Shown in pieces: positions 6,692-61,606 of a stretch of DNA of 64,000 bases. Position 1 is the first letter of the stretch. Every line of letters starts with the position of its first letter. The position numbers and the translations under genes were made by a program. Source of the DNA: Escherichia phage vB_EcoM_FB; sequence record MT682711.1; one strand, written 5' to 3'. A model generated the notes under the pieces. That model did no database searches and was not told where the DNA came from. It worked only from the letters and a program-made list of their open reading frames with translations.

Positions 6692-6728
6692 GAGAGCCAT
6701 TATAACATGGCTCTCGATAAAGTAAACT
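6692..6728 (-). promoter_or_regulatory. early promoter (GTTTAC -35, 17 nt, TATAAT -10) with the -10 inside an inverted repeat
   Basis: rc 6723-6728 GTTTAC; rc 6699-6704 TATAAT; gagagcc (6692-6698) / ggctctc (6709-6715). Confidence 0.55.
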
Positions 6729-6729
6729 A

Positions 6730-7281
6730 TTAATTCAATACATTAACCACTGCACTACGAGGTACTACACTAAAATCACCTGCATGGACAACGTTCAGAA
6801 GCTCAACACCGTCTTCAACCCATTGGTCTGTTACCCATCCACAGATAGGATTATCAAAAGGACGACGGATAGACACAGCAGCACACAGCAGGTCAGTAGG
6901 GTCTTGTTCGACTTCAACTTCTTGGAACAGGATGAACTCTGCTTCATAAACCAAGATTTTCTCTATTTTGTTATTATCTAATCGACGGCCGTGGATGACG
7001 TAAGATTTAGTAAACCAGTCACTTTTGGTAAATTCTTCAACAATAAATTCGCCTTCGCCAAAAACCTCAGTCAGAGTTTTATGGCCAGAAATCAAGGCCT
7101 TAGTTTTAATTTCAGGTTCAACCAGTTTGTAGGTTTTGCCGATTTCGATAGTCTGAGTATTCATAGCAGGTTCCTTAATTTCCAGTGGTTTAACAGGGCA
7201 TACATAAGTGCTTAAAACATCAAAATCAATCAGTTTAGCTGCCGGATTCGGGGTGTATTTAGGGTTGTAATTAAATTTCAT
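6730..7281 (-). CDS. hypothetical protein, paralogue of 6091..6657
   Basis: 183 aa; shared C-terminal domain with the neighbour. Confidence 0.6.
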   Translation of the reverse strand: MKFNYNPKYTPNPAAKLIDFDVLSTYVCPVKPLEIKEPAMNTQTIEIGKTYKLVEPEIKTKALISGHKTLTEVFGEGEFIVEEFTKSDWFTKSYVIHGRRLDNNKIEKILVYEAEFILFQEVEVEQDPTDLLCAAVSIRRPFDNPICGWVTDQWVEDGVELLNVVHAGDFSVVPRSAVVNVLN

Positions 7282-7787
7282 ATTGTTCTCAATTCAATAA
7301 AATCTACGAGTTCAGCATGGGATTTGCGGAACATTACTTGGCGGCCACCAATGACAACCTCATCTTCAGGGATTTCGTAAACGGCAAGATAGAATCCTTT
7401 AGAAGATAATTCTTCACGCTCTTCACGAGTGAACCAGCGCATCATATCATACTCACTGGCAAAAGCAAAATGGTAGAGATTAACAAACCAACCTGGAATA
7501 TAATCATCACAGCCTTCATAATCAGGCTGGTTCCACTTAGTTCGAATGGTTTTATTAGAATTTTCCACCAACAACTTGTCTTGACCTGGTAGTGGAATAT
7601 TTTTATTATTGGTATGGTGGTGTCTAAAATTAGGTTTGTCGAAACCTACTTCTAATAACCAACCTTCGCTCCATTCATCAAACGAGCCTCTATACGGTGT
7701 TAATTGGCGGCACTGTTGGTGAGTGATTGCTATAACATCGCTGTTATCTAAGATACTGAACGATGACTCCACTCGATAAATTTTCAT
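7278..7787 (-). CDS. hypothetical protein
   Basis: 169 aa ORF; GAGGAGAA Shine-Dalgarno; own promoter. Confidence 0.55.
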   Translation of the reverse strand: MKIYRVESSFSILDNSDVIAITHQQCRQLTPYRGSFDEWSEGWLLEVGFDKPNFRHHHTNNKNIPLPGQDKLLVENSNKTIRTKWNQPDYEGCDDYIPGWFVNLYHFAFASEYDMMRWFTREEREELSSKGFYLAVYEIPEDEVVIGGRQVMFRKSHAELVDFIELRTI

Positions 7788-7810
7788 TTTGTTCTCCTCA
7801 TGTTGATAGG

Positions 7811-7843
7811 GTAGATAATATCATGTCATGAGGAGAAGTAAAC
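7811..7843 (-). promoter_or_regulatory. early promoter (GTTTAC, TATTAT -10) with anti-SD in spacer
   Basis: rc 7838-7843 GTTTAC; rc 7815-7820 TATTAT; catgaggagaa (7827-7837) is the exact reverse complement of the SD region ttctcctcatg (7792-7802). Confidence 0.55.
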
Positions 7844-7847
7844 ACTT

Positions 7848-8522
7848 TTATCGATTTTTTATACTTAATGGGTCAGGATTCTCAGGGACATCTTCCAGAC
7901 CCAAGGCGTATCGTTGGGCATATTTAAGCATCAAGATATCCTTAGCACAGTCATGGATGGAGTCATGAGCAACAAAGCCATTCAATGTTCCGTTAGGCAG
8001 AGGACACATGCTCAATCCACGAGTTAGTGAATATGCTTCAATAGCTGTACGGATGTCACGTTGGTTCCAGAATTTAACCGGTTCTAATTTACTGGTATCA
8101 ATTTCATTCTCAGGAACACCTTCAGAACGATAAGCATCACGGATTAGGTCTACTAAGATAGGAAAGTCAAAGGACATTCCACGGCACCACATCTGAGATT
8201 TCCATTGGTCCACTTCGTTTTTACGGCAGTATTCCAGGAAATTACCGAGACCAATAGAAGTGGACACATCAATTTCAGATGGAGCCAGGTTTTTACGCGC
8301 TTCAGGCCCTTGCTCTTTCCACCACTGCAACGTGCTTTTAGAAAACAGTCGTTTATCACGTTGAGAAGCGAGGTCAAATTTAATACGAAGGCCTCGTTGA
8401 GTAAGCTCTTCAAACGTTTCTACAATCTCTGGATTAGGGTCGTAAGCAATTACGGCTAGGTCGATAACCGCTGCATTTTGAGTAGTGGCAAAGGTTTCAA
8501 AGTCAATAATTATATCTTTCAT
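7848..8522 (-). CDS. dexA: exonuclease A (DEDDh 3'-5' exonuclease)
   Basis: 224 aa; IIDFETF exo motif, HDSIHDCAKD C-terminal motif; T4 map position between 39 and dda. Confidence 0.8.
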   Translation of the reverse strand: MKDIIIDFETFATTQNAAVIDLAVIAYDPNPEIVETFEELTQRGLRIKFDLASQRDKRLFSKSTLQWWKEQGPEARKNLAPSEIDVSTSIGLGNFLEYCRKNEVDQWKSQMWCRGMSFDFPILVDLIRDAYRSEGVPENEIDTSKLEPVKFWNQRDIRTAIEAYSLTRGLSMCPLPNGTLNGFVAHDSIHDCAKDILMLKYAQRYALGLEDVPENPDPLSIKNR

Positions 8523-11910: not shown

Positions 11911-11952
11911 GTTGATAGAAAGATAGTACCACAAGCTTCCTTGCCTGTAAAC
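11911..11952 (-). promoter_or_regulatory. early promoter (GTTTACA, TACTAT)
   Basis: gtaaac 11947-11952, atagta 11923-11928; leader CTTTCTATCAAC plus GAGGAGA SD. Confidence 0.5.
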
Positions 11953-12521
11953 TAAAAATCCAACATTTTTAAATGAATTGTTTTGTACTCGATTTCGTAC
12001 GGGTCCCTTTTGACGGTTTCGATTTCAACAATCTCAAATCTTGATAGGCTGGAGACCATGAACTCACATTCAGTTTCAACCATATCATAGAGGTCAATAC
12101 GGGTTTCATCTATTTCAAGCTCATCCACATTCCCTGCAAGAACAAGGTCGATAGCATGATTGTAGTAGTCGAAAATGAACGGTGCATTCCTGAGACTTAA
12201 AATGGTTTTGGTTCCATATTCCCATGCCCCTGCGAATTGACGAGCCTGAGAGTATTGTGTACTAAAAGAAGTAACTCGACCAGGAGACCATTGACAACCT
12301 ACTGAAAGGAGCTCTAATTGCTCAAGTTCTCTGGTGGTAATCCCACGATACAACTCTACTGGAACCGCTGAAGTAACATGCTTGCGAACCAGTTTGTCAA
12401 GGTCGTAATGGAAGTTAGGGTCTTTTTTAGCATCCAGACATTTTTCTAAAAGATTCTGTTCGTGTTTTGAGAATTTGGAATTGATTCGGTCTTGATAAAG
12501 ACATTTTTGTTCGATGTTCAT
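11952..12521 (-). CDS. ADP-ribosyltransferase, ModA/ModB-like
   Basis: 189 aa; LYRG...SFST...E motifs; tandem paralogue. Confidence 0.65.
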   Translation of the reverse strand: MNIEQKCLYQDRINSKFSKHEQNLLEKCLDAKKDPNFHYDLDKLVRKHVTSAVPVELYRGITTRELEQLELLSVGCQWSPGRVTSFSTQYSQARQFAGAWEYGTKTILSLRNAPFIFDYYNHAIDLVLAGNVDELEIDETRIDLYDMVETECEFMVSSLSRFEIVEIETVKRDPYEIEYKTIHLKMLDF

Positions 12522-12545
12522 ATGACCTCCAGTGATTTAGAGGTC

Positions 12546-12574
12546 ATTATAACATGAAGGGAGGAGGTGTAAAA
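12546..12574 (-). promoter_or_regulatory. early promoter with extended -10 (TGTTATAAT) abutting a hairpin that covers SD and start codon
   Basis: rc 12546-12551 TATAAT, GTTTTAC at 12568-12574; arms atgacctc (12522-12529) / gaggtcat (12540-12547). Confidence 0.5.
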
Positions 12575-14198: not shown

Positions 14199-14226
14199 AA
14201 CCAAAAAAGGAACCCGAAGGTTCCTT
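14199..14226 (-). terminator. intrinsic terminator (UUCG hairpin plus U6)
   Basis: aaggaacc-cgaa-ggttcctt with rc TTTTTT tract at 14201-14208. Confidence 0.7.
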
Positions 14227-17695: not shown

Positions 17696-17734
17696 GATAG
17701 GTCTATAGTATCACTACCATAGACCGTTGTAAAC
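17696..17734 (-). promoter_or_regulatory. early promoter (GTTTAC, TACTAT, AGACCTATCAAC)
   Basis: gtaaac 17729-17734, atagta 17705-17710. Confidence 0.55.
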
Positions 17735-18311: not shown

Positions 18312-18641
18312 TTAGATTTCCTCACAGAAGGCCCATTCAGCATGATAAACCGTAGCGCCTTTAGTATCATTTAAACAAACCACATCTACCGGAGCAATTA
18401 CACGATAAAGACGAGGTTCTCCTCCCACTGAACGAGCTGCACGTCCAGCATAAATCTTAGCCAAACCGATATCTTCAGTAAAGAACACACGATTTAGGTT
18501 TTTCTTACGACCGGTTTCAGACAGAACTCCTGTTTCCTCAGGAGGACAAAGCATATTACCGATATTAGCGACACTACAACTTCCATGGTAATACACTTTA
18601 TATTCTGCTTTACAGTCGATGGTTTTCATTTTGTTCTCCAA
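18312..18641 (-). CDS. hypothetical protein
   Basis: 109 aa ORF. Confidence 0.55.
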   Translation of the reverse strand: MENKMKTIDCKAEYKVYYHGSCSVANIGNMLCPPEETGVLSETGRKKNLNRVFFTEDIGLAKIYAGRAARSVGGEPRLYRVIAPVDVVCLNDTKGATVYHAEWAFCEEI

Positions 18642-18649
18642 GTTGATAG

Positions 18650-18682
18650 GTCTATAGTATCACGCCTACAGGAGATGTAAAC
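18650..18682 (-). promoter_or_regulatory. early promoter (GTTTAC, TACTAT)
   Basis: gtaaac 18677-18682, atagta 18654-18659. Confidence 0.55.
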
Positions 18683-18690
18683 CCTTAAAA

Positions 18691-18714
18691 ACAAAAAAGG
18701 AGCCGAAGCTCCTT
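18691..18714 (-). terminator. intrinsic terminator (UUCG hairpin plus U tract)
   Basis: aaggagc-cgaa-gctcctt at 18697-18714, A6 on plus at 18693-18698. Confidence 0.7.
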
Positions 18715-40416: not shown

Positions 40417-40484
40417 AATAATTTCCTCAGTTTTAAAGTTATAATCCGTAGGACCATTATACTCTGGTCCCAAGAGTTTGTAAA

Positions 40485-41116: not shown

Positions 41117-41371
41117 TTACCTCAGCAGTTTGTATCCAATAAGATTTTTAATGTATTGGACATCTTTGACATCCAAATCTAACTTAATATCTTTCAGGCG
41201 TTCGGCCAGAGTAAGAAATGATACACGTTTCCAATTCTTAACAGGACAGCAATAAGTTTTCGGGCCATTGGCGATTTCAATATTCTTATCAGTGACGGTG
41301 AGAAAAATCAGGCGCTCATCATCCAGATTAAGGGTGACGACATTTTTCATTGAATGTAATTTCAGGCTCAT
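41117..41371 (-). CDS. hypothetical protein
   Basis: 84 aa ORF. Confidence 0.5.
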   Translation of the reverse strand: MSLKLHSMKNVVTLNLDDERLIFLTVTDKNIEIANGPKTYCCPVKNWKRVSFLTLAERLKDIKLDLDVKDVQYIKNLIGYKLLR

Positions 41372-41550
41372 AATTTGATTTCCTTAGCTATTGAACAAAA
41401 CACGCTACGGTCACATACCATCATTGGAATATTTCTATGGTCCAGTACACGATACCATACGTCTGAATCGCTAGCAGCAATTACACGAACCGCACGCCCA
41501 TTCACCAAATAATACTGGTCGGCTTTAATTTCTTTATCTTGGATAGTCAT
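41368..41550 (-). CDS. hypothetical protein
   Basis: 60 aa ORF with GAGGAGAA SD and own promoter. Confidence 0.5.
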   Translation of the reverse strand: MTIQDKEIKADQYYLVNGRAVRVIAASDSDVWYRVLDHRNIPMMVCDRSVFCSIAKEIKL

Positions 41551-41561
41551 AATGTTCTCCT

Positions 41562-41608
41562 CATGTGTTGATAGGATAGACTATAACACGTGAGGAGAGG
41601 AAGTAAAC
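41562..41608 (-). promoter_or_regulatory. early promoter (GTTTAC, TTATAG) with anti-SD in spacer
   Basis: gtaaac 41603-41608; cacgtgaggaga (41587-41598) complementary to SD region ttctcctcatgtg (41555-41567). Confidence 0.5.
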
Positions 41609-48467: not shown

Positions 48468-48992
48468 TTATGCGAGAACCGTCTTTAAACGCTCTTCAAA
48501 TTTCTGAAGCAGAGCTTGGCGTTCAGCTCGTTGTGATTTGTACTGCTCGATACGACCTGAAGTGAGGGCGTACTGTTCGTTTACTGATTCCCGCATAAAT
48601 TCAGGAATTTCTTTACAAGCTTTGATTTCGACAAACTTGTCAATAACAGCTTGTTGTTCAGCAATCAGATTATCGAAATAAGAGATATCTGATTTAACGT
48701 TTGCCAGGTCAGATTCGGTAGGCATTAAACGTTTGTTACGTTCAGCTTGATAAGCTTGGTTGGTTTCACGACTCCAGTGAAGAGTACGTTTTTTGTTAGT
48801 ATTTTTATAGAGCTCTACAATACCTACTGAATCGATGATAACAATCCAGTTCCAACGGCTTTTGTAAATCTCTCCTCCAGATATGGTAATCTCATTTCCA
48901 CAAGCAGCATCGTTAAAGAACTTGCTTTGTTTTTCAGATTTGAAATTACCGTTATTAAAATTAATCAGTGAAAAAATATCTTTAGCGTTCAT
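48468..48992 (-). CDS. hypothetical protein
   Basis: 174 aa ORF; own promoter. Confidence 0.6.
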   Translation of the reverse strand: MNAKDIFSLINFNNGNFKSEKQSKFFNDAACGNEITISGGEIYKSRWNWIVIIDSVGIVELYKNTNKKRTLHWSRETNQAYQAERNKRLMPTESDLANVKSDISYFDNLIAEQQAVIDKFVEIKACKEIPEFMRESVNEQYALTSGRIEQYKSQRAERQALLQKFEERLKTVLA

Positions 48993-49004
48993 GTTAACCT
49001 CCAG

Positions 49005-49047
49005 TAGTTGATAGGTCTATAGTATCATTCCTACTGGAGATGTAAAC
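49005..49047 (-). promoter_or_regulatory. early promoter (GTTTAC, TACTAT) with anti-SD in spacer
   Basis: gtaaac 49042-49047; ctactggaga (49031-49040) complementary to SD region cctccagtag (48998-49007). Confidence 0.55.
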
Positions 49048-50463: not shown

Positions 50464-50488
50464 CAAAAAAGGAACCCGAAGGTTCCTA
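50464..50488 (-). terminator. intrinsic terminator (UUCG hairpin plus U6)
   Basis: aggaacc-cgaa-ggttcct at 50470-50487, A6 at 50464-50470. Confidence 0.7.
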
Positions 50489-53469: not shown

Positions 53470-53706
53470 TCACCAGTATTTGCTAATGGTAGAAATTAAT
53501 TCTTGGACCTGGGCTGTATTCAGTTTACATCCACAACCCTTTAATGTGTCTTTAAGGAGCCACGGTTCCTTGAGCTCGTCCTTTTCTAGACGAATTCTGT
53601 ATCCTCGATAATCGGCGAAGATACTTCGGTCGTCGAATATCTTAATCTCAAGGATACGACCGTTGATTTCATATTCTAACGAAACCGTAGTACTTGTAAG
53701 TTTCAT
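53470..53706 (-). CDS. hypothetical protein
   Basis: 78 aa ORF with own promoter. Confidence 0.5.
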   Translation of the reverse strand: MKLTSTTVSLEYEINGRILEIKIFDDRSIFADYRGYRIRLEKDELKEPWLLKDTLKGCGCKLNTAQVQELISTISKYW

Positions 53707-53725
53707 TCTGTTCTCCTCATTAGTT

Positions 53726-53763
53726 GATAGGTCTATAGTATCATGTTCCTAGAGGATGTAAAC
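53726..53763 (-). promoter_or_regulatory. early promoter (GTTTAC, TACTAT)
   Basis: gtaaac 53758-53763; atagta 53735-53740. Confidence 0.55.
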
Positions 53764-53771
53764 ACCTAAAC

Positions 53772-53801
53772 GAAAAAAGGTCCCACCGAAGTGAGACCTT
53801 T
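53772..53801 (-). terminator. intrinsic terminator (UUCG-type hairpin plus U tract)
   Basis: aaggtcccac-cgaa-gtgagacctt with A6 on plus flank. Confidence 0.6.
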
Positions 53802-57178: not shown

Positions 57179-57884
57179 TAAGTCCTCGGTAATCTACATT
57201 AGGGAAGCCATTCTTAATTGCGATTTTACTAAATCTTCCACACTTTGGTTTATTATTATCTACCCATAATTTATATAATTGTGAATACATTGGTTCACGC
57301 CATATAGGAGCCTTTCGCAAAGAGGCCTTTTTCCTTTCTATAGTTTCCTTAGAATTTTGTATGGCTTTAAATTTTTGTCTATTTTCAGGATTTTCAAAAT
57401 ACTTAACCCGTTTTTCAGACATTTTAGCTTTTACTTTTGGCGAATTTAAAATTTCTTTGAGCCGTTCTTTAGAGCCTTCCTTTTCAAAATATTTTATTAA
57501 AGCCTTTGAATGGGCCGCCCTATTTTCATTTTTAGAGAAGAATAAAATTTTATTAATAGATTGCAGTTTTGAAAATGATTCTTTAGCCAACTTATAATTT
57601 TCAGCATCTACAAAATAAGACCTTTGCTTTGAATTTGAAGTAGAGCTCATATTTAGCCAAGCAAAATTCAACCCGTAGTGGTTTGGATTAGCTTTGGCTA
57701 AATACATATGGGCTAAATAGTGTTCGTCAGCATAAAGCTCGACTAAATTGTCTTGGGTGTCAGGACCACCAACACAACTCGGTATTATATGGTGCTTTTC
57801 TGTATAGGCATCATTAGGTGTATCCCTAGATAAGGCAGCATTTATTATTTTATAGTAGTCATATGGATATTTTATAGTTTCCAT
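57150..57884 (-). mobile_element. free-standing HNH homing endonuclease gene
   Basis: 244 aa; EKHHIIPSCVGG...NLV.L...EHYLAH closely matches the plus-strand HNH gene at 33262; basic C-terminal region. Confidence 0.65.
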
Positions 57885-57891
57885 ACTATCC

Positions 57892-58350
57892 TCACAAGTA
57901 AATAACTTTCGTGCTGGTTTTACCTTCTAAACGTTTAGAGTTAACAAATGCCATACGACATTTAAGGGAATATCCTTTATCAGGATGTTTACGGTCTACT
58001 GTCATACCTAGCCATAAGGTTTTATCGGTAATTTCGAGACGCAATGGACGATACACTTTACCAGGGACAATTTCGGATTCTACATCAGGTAGAGGTTCCT
58101 GGATTAAAAATTCATGAATTTCTTTAACATGGTTATGGAGTTGCTTGAATAAAGCAAAAACGTATTTTTCGTCGATTTCACGTTGGATAGCACGGTCCAA
58201 CAAGTGATTAGAGTACTTAATAAAGAAGGCTGGGACTCCGCTCTTGATGGCGGCTTTTTTGATGGACGTATTCAGTTCACGGAATTCGGTTTCGAACTGA
58301 CGACGTAATTTATTGCGGCGGATGAATACTTCTGAATTAATTTCTGACAT
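57892..58350 (-). CDS. regB: RegB site-specific endoribonuclease
   Basis: 152 aa; EVFIRRNKLRR...HLLDRAIQREIDE...LEITD resembles T4 RegB as recalled. Confidence 0.85.
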   Translation of the reverse strand: MSEINSEVFIRRNKLRRQFETEFRELNTSIKKAAIKSGVPAFFIKYSNHLLDRAIQREIDEKYVFALFKQLHNHVKEIHEFLIQEPLPDVESEIVPGKVYRPLRLEITDKTLWLGMTVDRKHPDKGYSLKCRMAFVNSKRLEGKTSTKVIYL

Positions 58351-58365
58351 TTTGTAATCTCCTGT

Positions 58366-58407
58366 AGTTGATAGGTCTATAGTACCACGTCTACAGGAGA
58401 TGTAAAC
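58366..58407 (-). promoter_or_regulatory. early promoter (GTTTAC, TACTAT) with perfect 10-nt anti-SD in spacer
   Basis: gtaaac 58402-58407; ctacaggaga (58391-58400) is the reverse complement of tctcctgtag (58358-58367). Confidence 0.6.
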
Positions 58408-60430: not shown

Positions 60431-60847
60431 TTAAGCGTAAATAGCCTTGCCATAATGTTTGTACCAGGTAGGACGCTGTGCAATTTTTTCATCCAAACGG
60501 GTCTGAGATATAGCAATAGAAGCTTCGTGTGGAGTATAGTCACCACGGAATTCCTGAGGAATGTCACTAATGTCCTGGACAGTAGTATCCTTGATATTAA
60601 AACCACGTTTTAAACATTCGGCTATAAGCTCAATTTGTCGCTTACGTAAAAATTCAAGCTTATCGTAAAAGAATGTAACATGGCCTGTGCCAAGGATAAA
60701 AGTAGGACTGATTTTGAAATCACGGACACGTTTACCATTAGCAACATGCTTACGAACTGCACCGAAAACACGTGGTAATTCACGATATTCAGCCATTAAG
60801 TGTTGGTCAGCCAATTCAGATACTAAGGTAAGGTTGATACGAGTCAT
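60431..60847 (-). CDS. denV: endonuclease V (pyrimidine dimer DNA glycosylase)
   Basis: 138 aa; [29 protein letters not shown] resembles T4 DenV as recalled. Confidence 0.85.
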
Positions 60848-60865
60848 TTTTAATCTCCTGTAGTT

Positions 60866-60903
60866 GATAGGTCTATAGTATCATGACTACAGGAGATGTA
60901 AAC
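60866..60903 (-). promoter_or_regulatory. early promoter (GTTTAC, TACTAT) with perfect 10-nt anti-SD in spacer
   Basis: gtaaac 60898-60903; atagta 60875-60880; ctacaggaga (60887-60896) vs tctcctgtag (60854-60863). Confidence 0.6.
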
Positions 60904-60927
60904 AACTTTTATCAAGTATAGGCTTTA

Positions 60928-61573: not shown

Positions 61574-61606
61574 AGATATACTATCACAATTCTAGGAGAT
61601 GTAAAC
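61574..61606 (-). promoter_or_regulatory. early promoter (GTTTAC, TAGTAT)
   Basis: gtaaac 61601-61606; atacta 61578-61583. Confidence 0.5.

Follow-up and report, generated by a model that had tools for sequence, protein, structure and literature searches.

Why does the promoter in front of denV carry, within its own spacer, a sequence complementary to the Shine-Dalgarno (SD) region of denV itself? The question arises at positions 60845-60903, on the minus strand, of a stretch of 64,000 nucleotides from Escherichia phage vB_EcoM_FB (MT682711.1), hereafter called the window. The flagged region is 99.8% identical to Escherichia phage QL01 and belongs to the JS98-like Dhakavirus group of the T4 subfamily; nearly every gene of the window lies on the minus strand. 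A preliminary description had listed five such sites and had proposed that a transcript started at the local promoter has a free SD, whereas a transcript reading through from upstream contains both arms and sequesters it.

The five minus-strand sites were found again with the sequences originally quoted. At each of them, the 10-14 nt directly 3' of the -35 hexamer are the reverse complement of the SD region of the next gene (Table 1). The genes concerned are denV, regB, nrdC.8, a 55.6-like open reading frame of 60 aa (CDS 41368-41550, just downstream of an nrdH-like gene), and a homolog of motB.2 assigned by synteny with T4 (CDS 7278-7787, downstream of a dexA-like gene). The 3' arm, which is the SD, lies about 10-20 nt downstream of the predicted +1 and the loops measure 21-27 nt. 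The arms of the denV and regB cassettes are identical. At 60848-60902 and 7787-7842, mismatched complementarity runs on into the TTTA of the -35 hexamer and the A-run before the AUG; counted in this way, the denV helix extends to 17 nt at 88%. The single mismatch reported for 41555-41608 is indeed present, within a pairing of 14 nt containing one C.A. For the site given as 49005-49047, the arms stand and so does the compensatory change (TGTAG/CTACA vs. AGTAG/CTACT), but the low coordinate does not, the 3' arm ending at about 48997-48998. The remark that RegB is encoded nearby was correct and understated, regB being the very gene driven by the 58358-58407 cassette. Besides these five sites, a second layout, in which the 5' arm covers the -10 box and the discriminator, occurs at a Mod-like ADP-ribosylase gene (phrog_832; CDS 11952-12521, minus strand). 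Its cassette has an extra short spacer arm, ACCTCC (12563-12568), complementary to GGAGGT.

Table 1. Coordinates, arms, and predicted SD-core accessibility of the promoter cassettes and associated genes of the window. The last two columns give the SD-core unpaired probability in RNA started at the gene's own promoter and in read-through RNA.
Feature	Coordinates	Strand	Elements	5' arm	3' arm	Pairing	Own promoter	Read-through
denV cassette (60902)	60845..60903	minus	-35 GTTTAC 60898-60903; -10 TACTAT 60875-60880; predicted start near 60868; ATG 60845-60847	ATCTCCTGTAGT 60886-60897	ACTACAGGAGAT (SD) 60853-60864	12 bp exact	0.36	0.000
denV (endonuclease V) CDS, controlled by the 60845-60903 cassette	60431..60847	minus	phrog_1183, E = 5e-63					
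regB cassette (58406)	58348..58407	minus	-35 58402-58407; -10 58379-58384; ATG 58348-58350	ATCTCCTGTAG 58391-58401	CTACAGGAGAT 58357-58367	11 bp exact	0.66	0.000
regB (GGAG-specific endoribonuclease) CDS	57892..58350	minus	phrog_1323, E = 7e-72; QL01 annotation 'site-specific RNA endonuclease'					
nrdC.8 cassette (49046)	48990..49047	minus	-35 49042-49047; -10 49019-49024; ATG 48990-48992; CDS 48468-48992	ATCTCCAGTAG 49031-49041	CTACTGGAGGT 48997-49007	11 bp, one terminal U.G pair	0.45	0.004
55.6-like ORF cassette (41607)	41548..41608	minus	-35 41603-41608; -10 41580-41585; ATG 41548-41550	TCTCCTCACGTGTT 41585-41598	AACACATGAGGAGA 41556-41569	14 nt, one C.A mismatch	0.67	0.000
motB.2-homolog cassette (7842)	7785..7843	minus	-35 7838-7843; -10 7815-7820; ATG 7785-7787	TTCTCCTCATG 7827-7837	CATGAGGAGAA 7792-7802	11 bp exact	0.59	0.000
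Second-layout cassette, Mod-like ADP-ribosylase gene (12573)	12514..12574	minus		ATGTTATAATGACCTC (-10 box + discriminator) 12540-12555	GAGGTCATATGAACAT (SD + AUG + first codons) 12514-12529	16 nt, 81% complementarity	0.55	0.001
Imperfect member	53706..53763	minus		ATCCTCTAG (spacer)	CTAATGAGGAG	CCTC/GAGG and TAG/CTA with bulge	0.61	0.022
Decayed member	18629..18682	minus		ATCTCCTGTAG intact 18666-18676	CTTGGAGA	TCTCC/GGAGA sole pairing		
ipIII promoter, orphan 5' arm	61578..61606	minus	short AATTGTG/TACAGTT hairpin straddles -10 box	ATCTCCTAG		no SD partner		

The flanking hexamers had been taken for early promoters, a reading which the sequence statistics bear out. The T4 early pattern GTTTAC-N17-TAnnAT, of sigma-70-like type, is matched 11 times in the window vs. 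0.3 expected. The cassette promoters have GTTTAC, a 17-nt spacer, a TG-extended TAnnAT, and an A at the seventh nucleotide after the -10 box. With a looser scan, about 20 intergenic early promoters appear on the minus strand of the window, each followed by an SD and an ATG. That the repeats arose by chance can be rejected on two counts. The window contains 6 exact inverted repeats whose arms measure at least 10 nt and whose loops measure 12-40 nt, where Markov-1 random sequence gives 2.07 +/- 1.5; three of them belong to these cassettes, all in the same register between -35 and SD. Moreover, a spacer/SD helix of at least 10 bp is present in 14.4% of 208 distinct promoter-to-ATG cassettes vs. 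0.19% when the spacers are shuffled.

Known classes of RNA structure were also considered. Rfam gave no match at gathering score over the whole window, on both strands. An intrinsic (Rho-independent) terminator is rejected, because the terminator scan called none at 60853-60897, 58357-58401, or 48997-49041 and no T-run stands behind the 3' arm, where the tail reads TTAAAAATG. An RNase III site is likewise rejected, the stems being too short by general knowledge. As for terminators located upstream, none of the five window promoters preceded by one has arms of at least 8 bp, vs. 5 of the 15 others; over 243 cassettes, this expected avoidance amounts to a trend, with a Fisher p of 0.04 raw and of 0.3-1.0, not significant, after collapsing by gene and arm.

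The preliminary description had called for a comparison of the two predicted RNA forms by folding. For the RNA of the own promoter, +1 was set at the A seven bases past the -10 box; the modelled read-through RNA had its 5' end some 30 nt ahead of the -35 hexamer. The read-through forms of denV, regB, and motB.2 are predicted to fold strongly (-30.9, -22.1, and -28.6 kcal/mol; z = -6.3, -2.3, and -5.3, respectively), and the promoter-started forms barely (-1.6, -1.4, and -0.7 kcal/mol). Accessibility was measured at the SD core rather than as a mean from -13 to +3, which separated the two forms poorly because the A-rich spacer between SD and AUG stays open. With this measure, the SD of the five cassettes is predicted to be sequestered on read-through RNA, as had been claimed, with an unpaired probability of at most 0.004 vs. 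0.36-0.67 in RNA from the own promoter. The read-through values lie below those of at least 96% of controls in which the upstream part was shuffled. The other half of the claim, a local transcript devoid of the upstream arm, agrees with the predicted start site: the -10 box stands in the loop together with the A located 7 nt downstream of it, so that the predicted start falls inside the structure and the local transcript would lack the 5' arm.

Most other promoters of the window have an SD accessibility like that of their shuffles in the folding test. The second-layout cassette of the Mod-like gene behaves as the five do. At the imperfect member, 53706-53763, masking is predicted to a level that 12% of shuffles attain; it is preceded by a UUCG-loop intrinsic terminator (53776-53801). 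The decayed member, 18629-18682, has kept its 5' arm, and its read-through SD masking is no different from that of shuffles; here too, a terminator stands directly upstream. Pairing at the 46479 promoter is weaker and rich in G.U. Finally, the ipIII promoter has an orphan 5' arm; in one relative (L109), a promoter of the ipIII type is joined to the denV SD and pairs with it.

If pairing with the SD matters, it should have left a trace in related phages, and covariation across homologous promoters had accordingly been suggested as a check. A 17-nt core free of both arms, TACTATAGACCTATCAA, was used as a query in public viral contigs. The window has about 7 copies of it, and 73 stretches of contig DNA contain it. 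The 77 distinct cassettes that bear it have many different spacers and leaders, with pairing in the matched ones only, and arm variants differ from one another by double changes (TGTAG/CTACA, AGTAG/CTACT, and, in relatives, ATTAG/CTAAT). Orthologous upstream regions were in addition obtained by protein similarity. In these promoters of T4-like phages, more than 25 different arm sequences keep the pairing, and all include the GGAG core. Among regB orthologs, the arms read TCTCCTGTAG/CTACAGGAGA, TTTCTCCTCTTTAT/ATAAAGAGGAGAAA and, in T4, TTTTCCTCTTGACTG/CAGTTAAGAGGAGAA; in two regB lineages, a short outer helix is stacked on an inner hairpin. The denV orthologs have at least 12 arm sequences in two layouts, one with the 5' arm in the spacer (TTCCTCCAAG/CTTGGAGGAA, CTCCGTTTG/CAAACGGAG, TCTCCTGTG/CACAGGAGA) and one with the 5' arm over the -10 box and discriminator (AGTGTTCTC/GAGAACACT, GATGTCTTCC/GGAGGACATC, ATGTCCTCCTA/TAGGAGGACAT). 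In both, the 5' arm stops at or before the predicted +1. By folding, the SD is masked in the read-through RNA of 28 of the 35 distinct denV upstream regions and 10 of the 18 for regB. At nrdC.8 and motB.2, the pairing is kept between the JS98 and T4 groups with differing arms, and a Mod-like gene follows the second layout in T4 as well as in the window.

Covariation was scored in windows anchored only on the GGA/CC core, whole-cassette MAFFT alignment having put some arms out of register. The result is positive. Over 34 distinct arm pairs, the score is 0.425, vs. 0.139 when partners are shuffled (reached in 0 of 500 trials) and 0.06-0.12 when registers are slid. When SD partners are swapped among denV or among regB orthologs, the cognate score is reached in 0 of 2000 trials each. 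One covarying position is occupied by GC 12 times, UA 10, CG 8, AU 3, and GU once, and is never unpaired. As the set of 34 holds only helices of at least 8 bp, its percentage of paired positions is biased, and the weight is carried by the shuffle and slide controls and by the diversity of pair types. Judged from these comparisons, complementarity rather than sequence is conserved in the arms.

The design extends to T4 itself. The early-strand regions of T4, scanned in the same way as the window, contain 29 candidate promoter-gene pairs. Masking of the SD specific to read-through RNA is predicted for nine of them, motB.2, modB, nrdC.8, regB, denV, e.8, 30.8, alc, and ndd.4, which indicates that it is general to T4-like phages and not the oddity of one cassette family. 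The design had been presented as built into a repeated promoter cassette; this describes the window well, but not as a special case, since T4 has the same design with unrelated arms.

We therefore return to the question with a model in which the SD-masking early cassettes probably act as translational insulators, tying the translation of a gene to its own early promoter. The model draws on the anatomy of the sequence, on predicted thermodynamics, and on conservation with compensatory change; what we infer is where transcription starts, how the RNA folds in vivo, and how translation and RegB cleavage respond. Each unit would consist of an early promoter of the sigma-70 type that holds, ahead of its start, a complement to the SD region of its own gene; this 5' arm would usually occupy the opening 10-14 nt of the spacer and in some cases the -10 box with the discriminator. 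Transcription from the local start would give a leader of about 20-25 nt without the 5' arm, in which the SD is open and the gene is translated; the open GGAG with its A-rich site would also be exposed to RegB. For a polymerase arriving from upstream, the 5' arm would be made first, and the SD, emerging about 25 nt later, would pair with it at once, presumably before any 30S subunit can bind. The read-through copies of the cistron would then be translationally silent. They would probably also resist RegB at the masked site, because RegB needs single-stranded RNA. The outcome would be a product limited in amount, whose synthesis is confined to a short immediate-early period and is independent of the upstream context. 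RegB, ModB, and Alc are proteins that plausibly must be limited both in amount and in time. More tentatively, and with somewhat less than even confidence, we propose that about one third of T-even early promoters are self-insulating modules: the SD would be masked in any RNA not started there, so that takeover genes sensitive to dose (regB, modB, alc, denV, and others) would be translated strictly in the immediate-early period, whatever their genomic context, and the same fold would confine RegB cleavage to promoter-started RNA. A single fold would in this way govern when the gene is translated, when its RNA decays, and how portable the shuffled cassette is. It would also go some way towards accounting for the fast cessation of early protein synthesis, which is poorly understood.

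Alternatively, the stems might be generic stem-loops of the PeSL type, serving as attenuators, terminators, 3'-end stabilisers, or patches of homology, with the SD as an incidental 3' arm. PeSL modules are indeed described as an early promoter, a stem-loop, and an SD/ATG, and one RB49/phi1 stem lowered lacZ output like a strong terminator (PMC2839356). Sister hairpins that leave the SD free occupy the same spacer position in the window (6692-6715 and 17700-17725), closing on or just after the -10 box. Outside the window, this class is found at T4 ipI, at T4 mobD.2, and in relatives with GGTCTATAG-8 nt-CTATAGACC, and it stands in for the SD-masking form at regB (L081-83) and nrdC.8 (L177-179, L182). 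Chimeric cassettes also exist, with arms in L066/L184 and with the ipIII-type promoter of L109. Since sister hairpins replace the SD-masking form in some lineages, stems may have a second function, and one without involvement of the SD may also be served at the spacer position. As an account of the SD-masking cassettes, generic stems nevertheless seem unlikely: there is no T-run, no terminator is called, and loops are 21-27 nt long; the independent arm variants all include the GGAG core; the second layout shifts the 5' arm yet keeps the SD as partner; and the SD lies outside all five published stem positions.

Protection from RNase could instead be the main role, the GGAG being hidden from RegB so that long transcripts survive for distal delayed-early genes, with the translation block as a side effect. 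RegB needs its 11-nt target, GGAGRAYARAA, to be single-stranded, structure being inhibitory, and the SDs of T4 regB and motB.2 are cleaved by RegB in vivo (PMC1702504). The masked sites of the window fit this consensus by sequence match, GGAGAACAAAA (7792-7802) at 11 of 11 positions and the others at 9-10 of 11, and the SD of regB itself is among them. In the predicted folds, the RegB-type site is single-stranded only in the promoter-started form, and only promoter-started RNA should, on this modelling, be sensitive to RegB. Because pairing of the SD necessarily keeps the 30S subunit out as well, the sequence cannot separate shielding from the translation block. Two observations make shielding as the main role decidedly improbable. 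GGAG SDs are equally common at early genes without an arm, for example at 17733, 11951, and 46479, and denV orthologs with a GGAGG SD and a tail that is not A-rich, hence poor RegB sites, keep the stem. In either reading, the likeness to the RegB targets lies in the GGAG and A-rich tail of the masked 3' arms (9-11 of 11 positions): those targets are defined as unstructured, whereas the masked cassette sites are predicted to be unstructured in one of two transcript forms only. Such transcript-form-specific exposure has not been described for RegB sites.

The stem could also be a device for translational coupling, in which ribosomes finishing the upstream open reading frame melt the stem and read-through translation depends on that of the upstream gene. 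Upstream stop codons lie 2-31 nt ahead of the -35 hexamer, and at four of the five sites the 5' arm starts 12-14 nt past the first base of the stop codon, so that a terminating ribosome might partly open the stem. However, at denV 31 nt separate the stop codon from the arm. At the other sites, the leading edge of a terminating ribosome (about +12 from the A-site codon) would just reach the start of the arm or stop short of it, so that at most one pair would be opened. Coupling leaves unexplained, moreover, that the promoter start is always inside the loop, and we give it little credence.

Of about the same standing, or slightly below, is the proposal that the inverted repeat acts in DNA, as a cruciform, as a protein site modulating the promoter, or as a recombination signal. 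The arms do flank the -10 box and the start site, and a recombination protein binding the stems was a speculation of the PeSL authors (PMC2839356). Yet loops of 21-27 nt disfavour cruciform extrusion, and the 3' arm is always the SD on the sense strand. The conservation of complementarity rather than of sequence argues against a sequence-specific protein at a DNA repeat. The end of the 5' arm at or before +1 in both layouts is required by the model of read-through masking and not by one acting in DNA. U.G pairs occur at T4 regB and nrdC.8, though too few for a test; a signature of the RNA strand (G.U tolerated, A.C not) could not be shown on the few data, with 8 vs. 10 cases at helix ends and just three internal mismatches in existence. 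Finally, that one chance self-complementary cassette was simply spread by recombination is scarcely credible: the core does recur as described above and the denV and regB arms are identical, but cassettes sharing the core vary in their spacers and SDs with the matched ones alone pairing, and orthologous promoters elsewhere pair with unrelated sequences and the other layout, so that the covariation data largely refute this idea.

Temporal control of phage genes has T4 as its reference system. Reviews of T4 place hairpins masking the ribosome binding site (RBS) only at late genes embedded in early transcription units and regard the rapid shut-off of early proteins as incompletely understood (PMC3014915); for RegB, a T4 review holds that production 'must be tightly regulated'. 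If translational insulation is real, RegB, ModB, and Alc would be held to a brief burst in spite of continuing upstream transcription of their coding regions. RegB targeting would gain a further dimension, that of the transcript form. The promoter cassettes by which genes are shuffled among T4-like phages would have a functional rationale for their conserved architecture, since a gene with its own insulator would be expressed alike wherever it landed. At about 60 nt, the design is compact and a potential synthetic-biology part for isolating genes from read-through.

Two families of known elements invite comparison. In the first, RBS-masking hairpins enclose a promoter at T4 e, soc, 49, and I-TevI, and also at I-TevII/III, segB, and Aeh1 mobE (PMC3014915, PMC2988022); for T4 e and I-TevI, the mechanism of long and short transcripts is experimentally proven, and the logic is counted as established by experiment for soc and 49 as well (PMC3014915). 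The gene e and I-TevI comparison drawn at the outset is apt. The known cases, however, enclose late promoters, and the genes known under such control 'are all late genes' according to a 2010 review (PMC2988022). The early cassettes share with this class an upstream segment that pairs with the SD and/or the AUG, found at the five sites with stems of 10-14 bp. By prediction, they would also have a promoter start inside the structure, with an open short form and a closed long form. Both occur in the same phage family. In the T4 class, the internal promoter is late (TATAAATA, gp55) and drives late genes, a feature absent from the early cassettes; these contain instead an early sigma-70 promoter, GTTTAC-N17-TG-n-TAnnAT, in front of early genes (regB, denV, mod-like). 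T4 late-gene hairpins silence early and middle read-through, whereas the early cassettes would silence read-through from upstream early, middle, or late transcription. Unlike the late hairpins, they have the 5' arm within the promoter's own spacer or -10 region, and they account for about 30% of early promoters. By analogy, the early-promoter version is best read as the mirror image of the T4 late-gene hairpins.

The second family is that of the PeSL cassettes, made up of an AT-rich upstream region, an early promoter, a stem-loop, and an SD/ATG, with stems interpreted as terminators or attenuators and as recombination sites (PMC2839356, PMC4122927). The JS98 group is mentioned only in passing in this literature (PMC2839356, PMC4122927), from which SD masking and translation are absent, the words 'ribosome' and 'translation' each occurring 0 times in PMC2839356. 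More generally, no description of SD masking from within an early promoter was found in the PeSL papers cited here, the 2010 T4 reviews, or the paper on RegB targets, though an older mention is possible. The cassettes of the window resemble PeSL in their sigma-70-like early promoter, AT-rich upstream region, and intergenic location followed by an SD and a start codon, in their repetition through early regions, and in the signs of recombination or indels that relatives show. They differ in the position of the stem: published PeSL stems occupy the -35/-10 interval, overlap either hexamer, precede the -35, or stand immediately ahead of +1 (PMC2839356), always upstream of +1, whereas here the SD itself, beyond the predicted +1, forms the 3' arm. 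The sister hairpins at 6692-6715 and 17700-17725 do fit the described positions. The pattern of stem and T-run that marks an intrinsic terminator is absent at the SD-masking cassettes. The SD-masking early cassettes belong to neither family as described: they work like the T4 e class and are built like a relative of PeSL.

At two of the window's SD-masking cassettes, those of the motB.2 homolog and denV, the fold is prolonged past the SD stem by outer helices (see the table below). In the motB.2 homolog, codons 3-5 contain TTTATCGA, the pairing partner of TCGATAAA, in which the upstream stop codon lies; the T4-type motB.2 loci share the GATAAA/TTTATC portion of this helix. The outer helices may additionally bury the AUG.

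Coordinates of features in the window and, for the ORF, in the compared JS98 locus L095
Feature	Position	Strand
Outer helix, motB.2 homolog	7845-7852 with 7771-7778	minus
Weaker equivalent outer helix, denV	around 60905-60915 with 60830-60840	minus
Second-class hairpin	6692-6715	minus
Second-class hairpin	17700-17725	minus
Second-class hairpin	40451-40471	minus
UUCG-tetraloop intrinsic terminator before early -35	53776-53801	minus
UUCG-tetraloop intrinsic terminator before early -35	50470-50487	minus
UUCG-tetraloop intrinsic terminator before early -35	about 18690-18712	minus
UUCG-tetraloop intrinsic terminator before early -35	about 14200-14222	minus
UUCG-tetraloop intrinsic terminator before early -35	about 2835-2856	minus
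Internal-protein-like ORF	L095 146-543 (JS98); absent from window, where its place corresponds to about 60904-60927	

A second class of hairpins is found inside early promoters: the spacer supplies the 5' arm, and the 3' arm lies at the -10 box or directly after it. The arm pairs are GAGAGCC/GGCTCTC, GGTCTA/TAGACC, and GGACC/GGTCC; relatives carry GGTCTATAG/CTATAGACC, and such hairpins also occur at the T4 ipI, mobD.2, and ipIII promoters (compared locus L075). Their whole stem lies upstream of +1, the SD is not contacted, and there is no T-run. In some lineages, regB and nrdC.8 have a hairpin of this class in place of the SD-masking one. The longest inverted repeat of the window, at 57650-57704, has a loop of 5 nt between 25-nt arms that are 76% complementary; it is located within the coding region directly downstream of regB and has no associated promoter.

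Composite terminator-promoter units were also observed, in which a canonical intrinsic terminator with a UUCG tetraloop is followed 12-24 nt later by an early -35 hexamer. At the promoters downstream of these terminators in the window, SD-complementary arms are degraded or absent, a link that does not reach statistical significance. A different composite design is seen at denV in phages whose genomes span about 350 kb (loci L122-L124 and L128). There, the -35 TTGAC forms part of the GC-rich hairpin GGGTTGACTTCGGTCAGCCC, after which come a T-run and then the -10 box; this element is a terminator carrying the -35 element of the next promoter inside its stem. The SD of these denV genes is unmasked.

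JS98 and JS10 have, between ipIII and denV, an additional internal-protein-like ORF of about 130 aa, devoid of its own early promoter and missing from the window. In the QL01 record, as compared with window positions 41548-41575, the start of the 55.6-like ORF seems to be placed in the promoter spacer, about 25 nt before the ATG that follows the SD. This start is probably mis-called, unless the offset is due to an indel between QL01 and the window.

Finally, some cassettes are chimeric. The JS98 nrdC.8 promoter (L066, L184) combines an ATTAG 5' arm from another cassette with a CTACT 3' arm, at the cost of one base pair. At the denV locus of one relative (L109), the denV SD is joined to, and pairs with, an ipIII-type promoter (TTTCTCCTAG plus the inner hairpin AATTGTGA/TCACAATT). 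Both chimeras look like products of recombination inside the loop, the same process as that proposed for the promoter-early stem-loop (PeSL) cassettes of T4-type phages.
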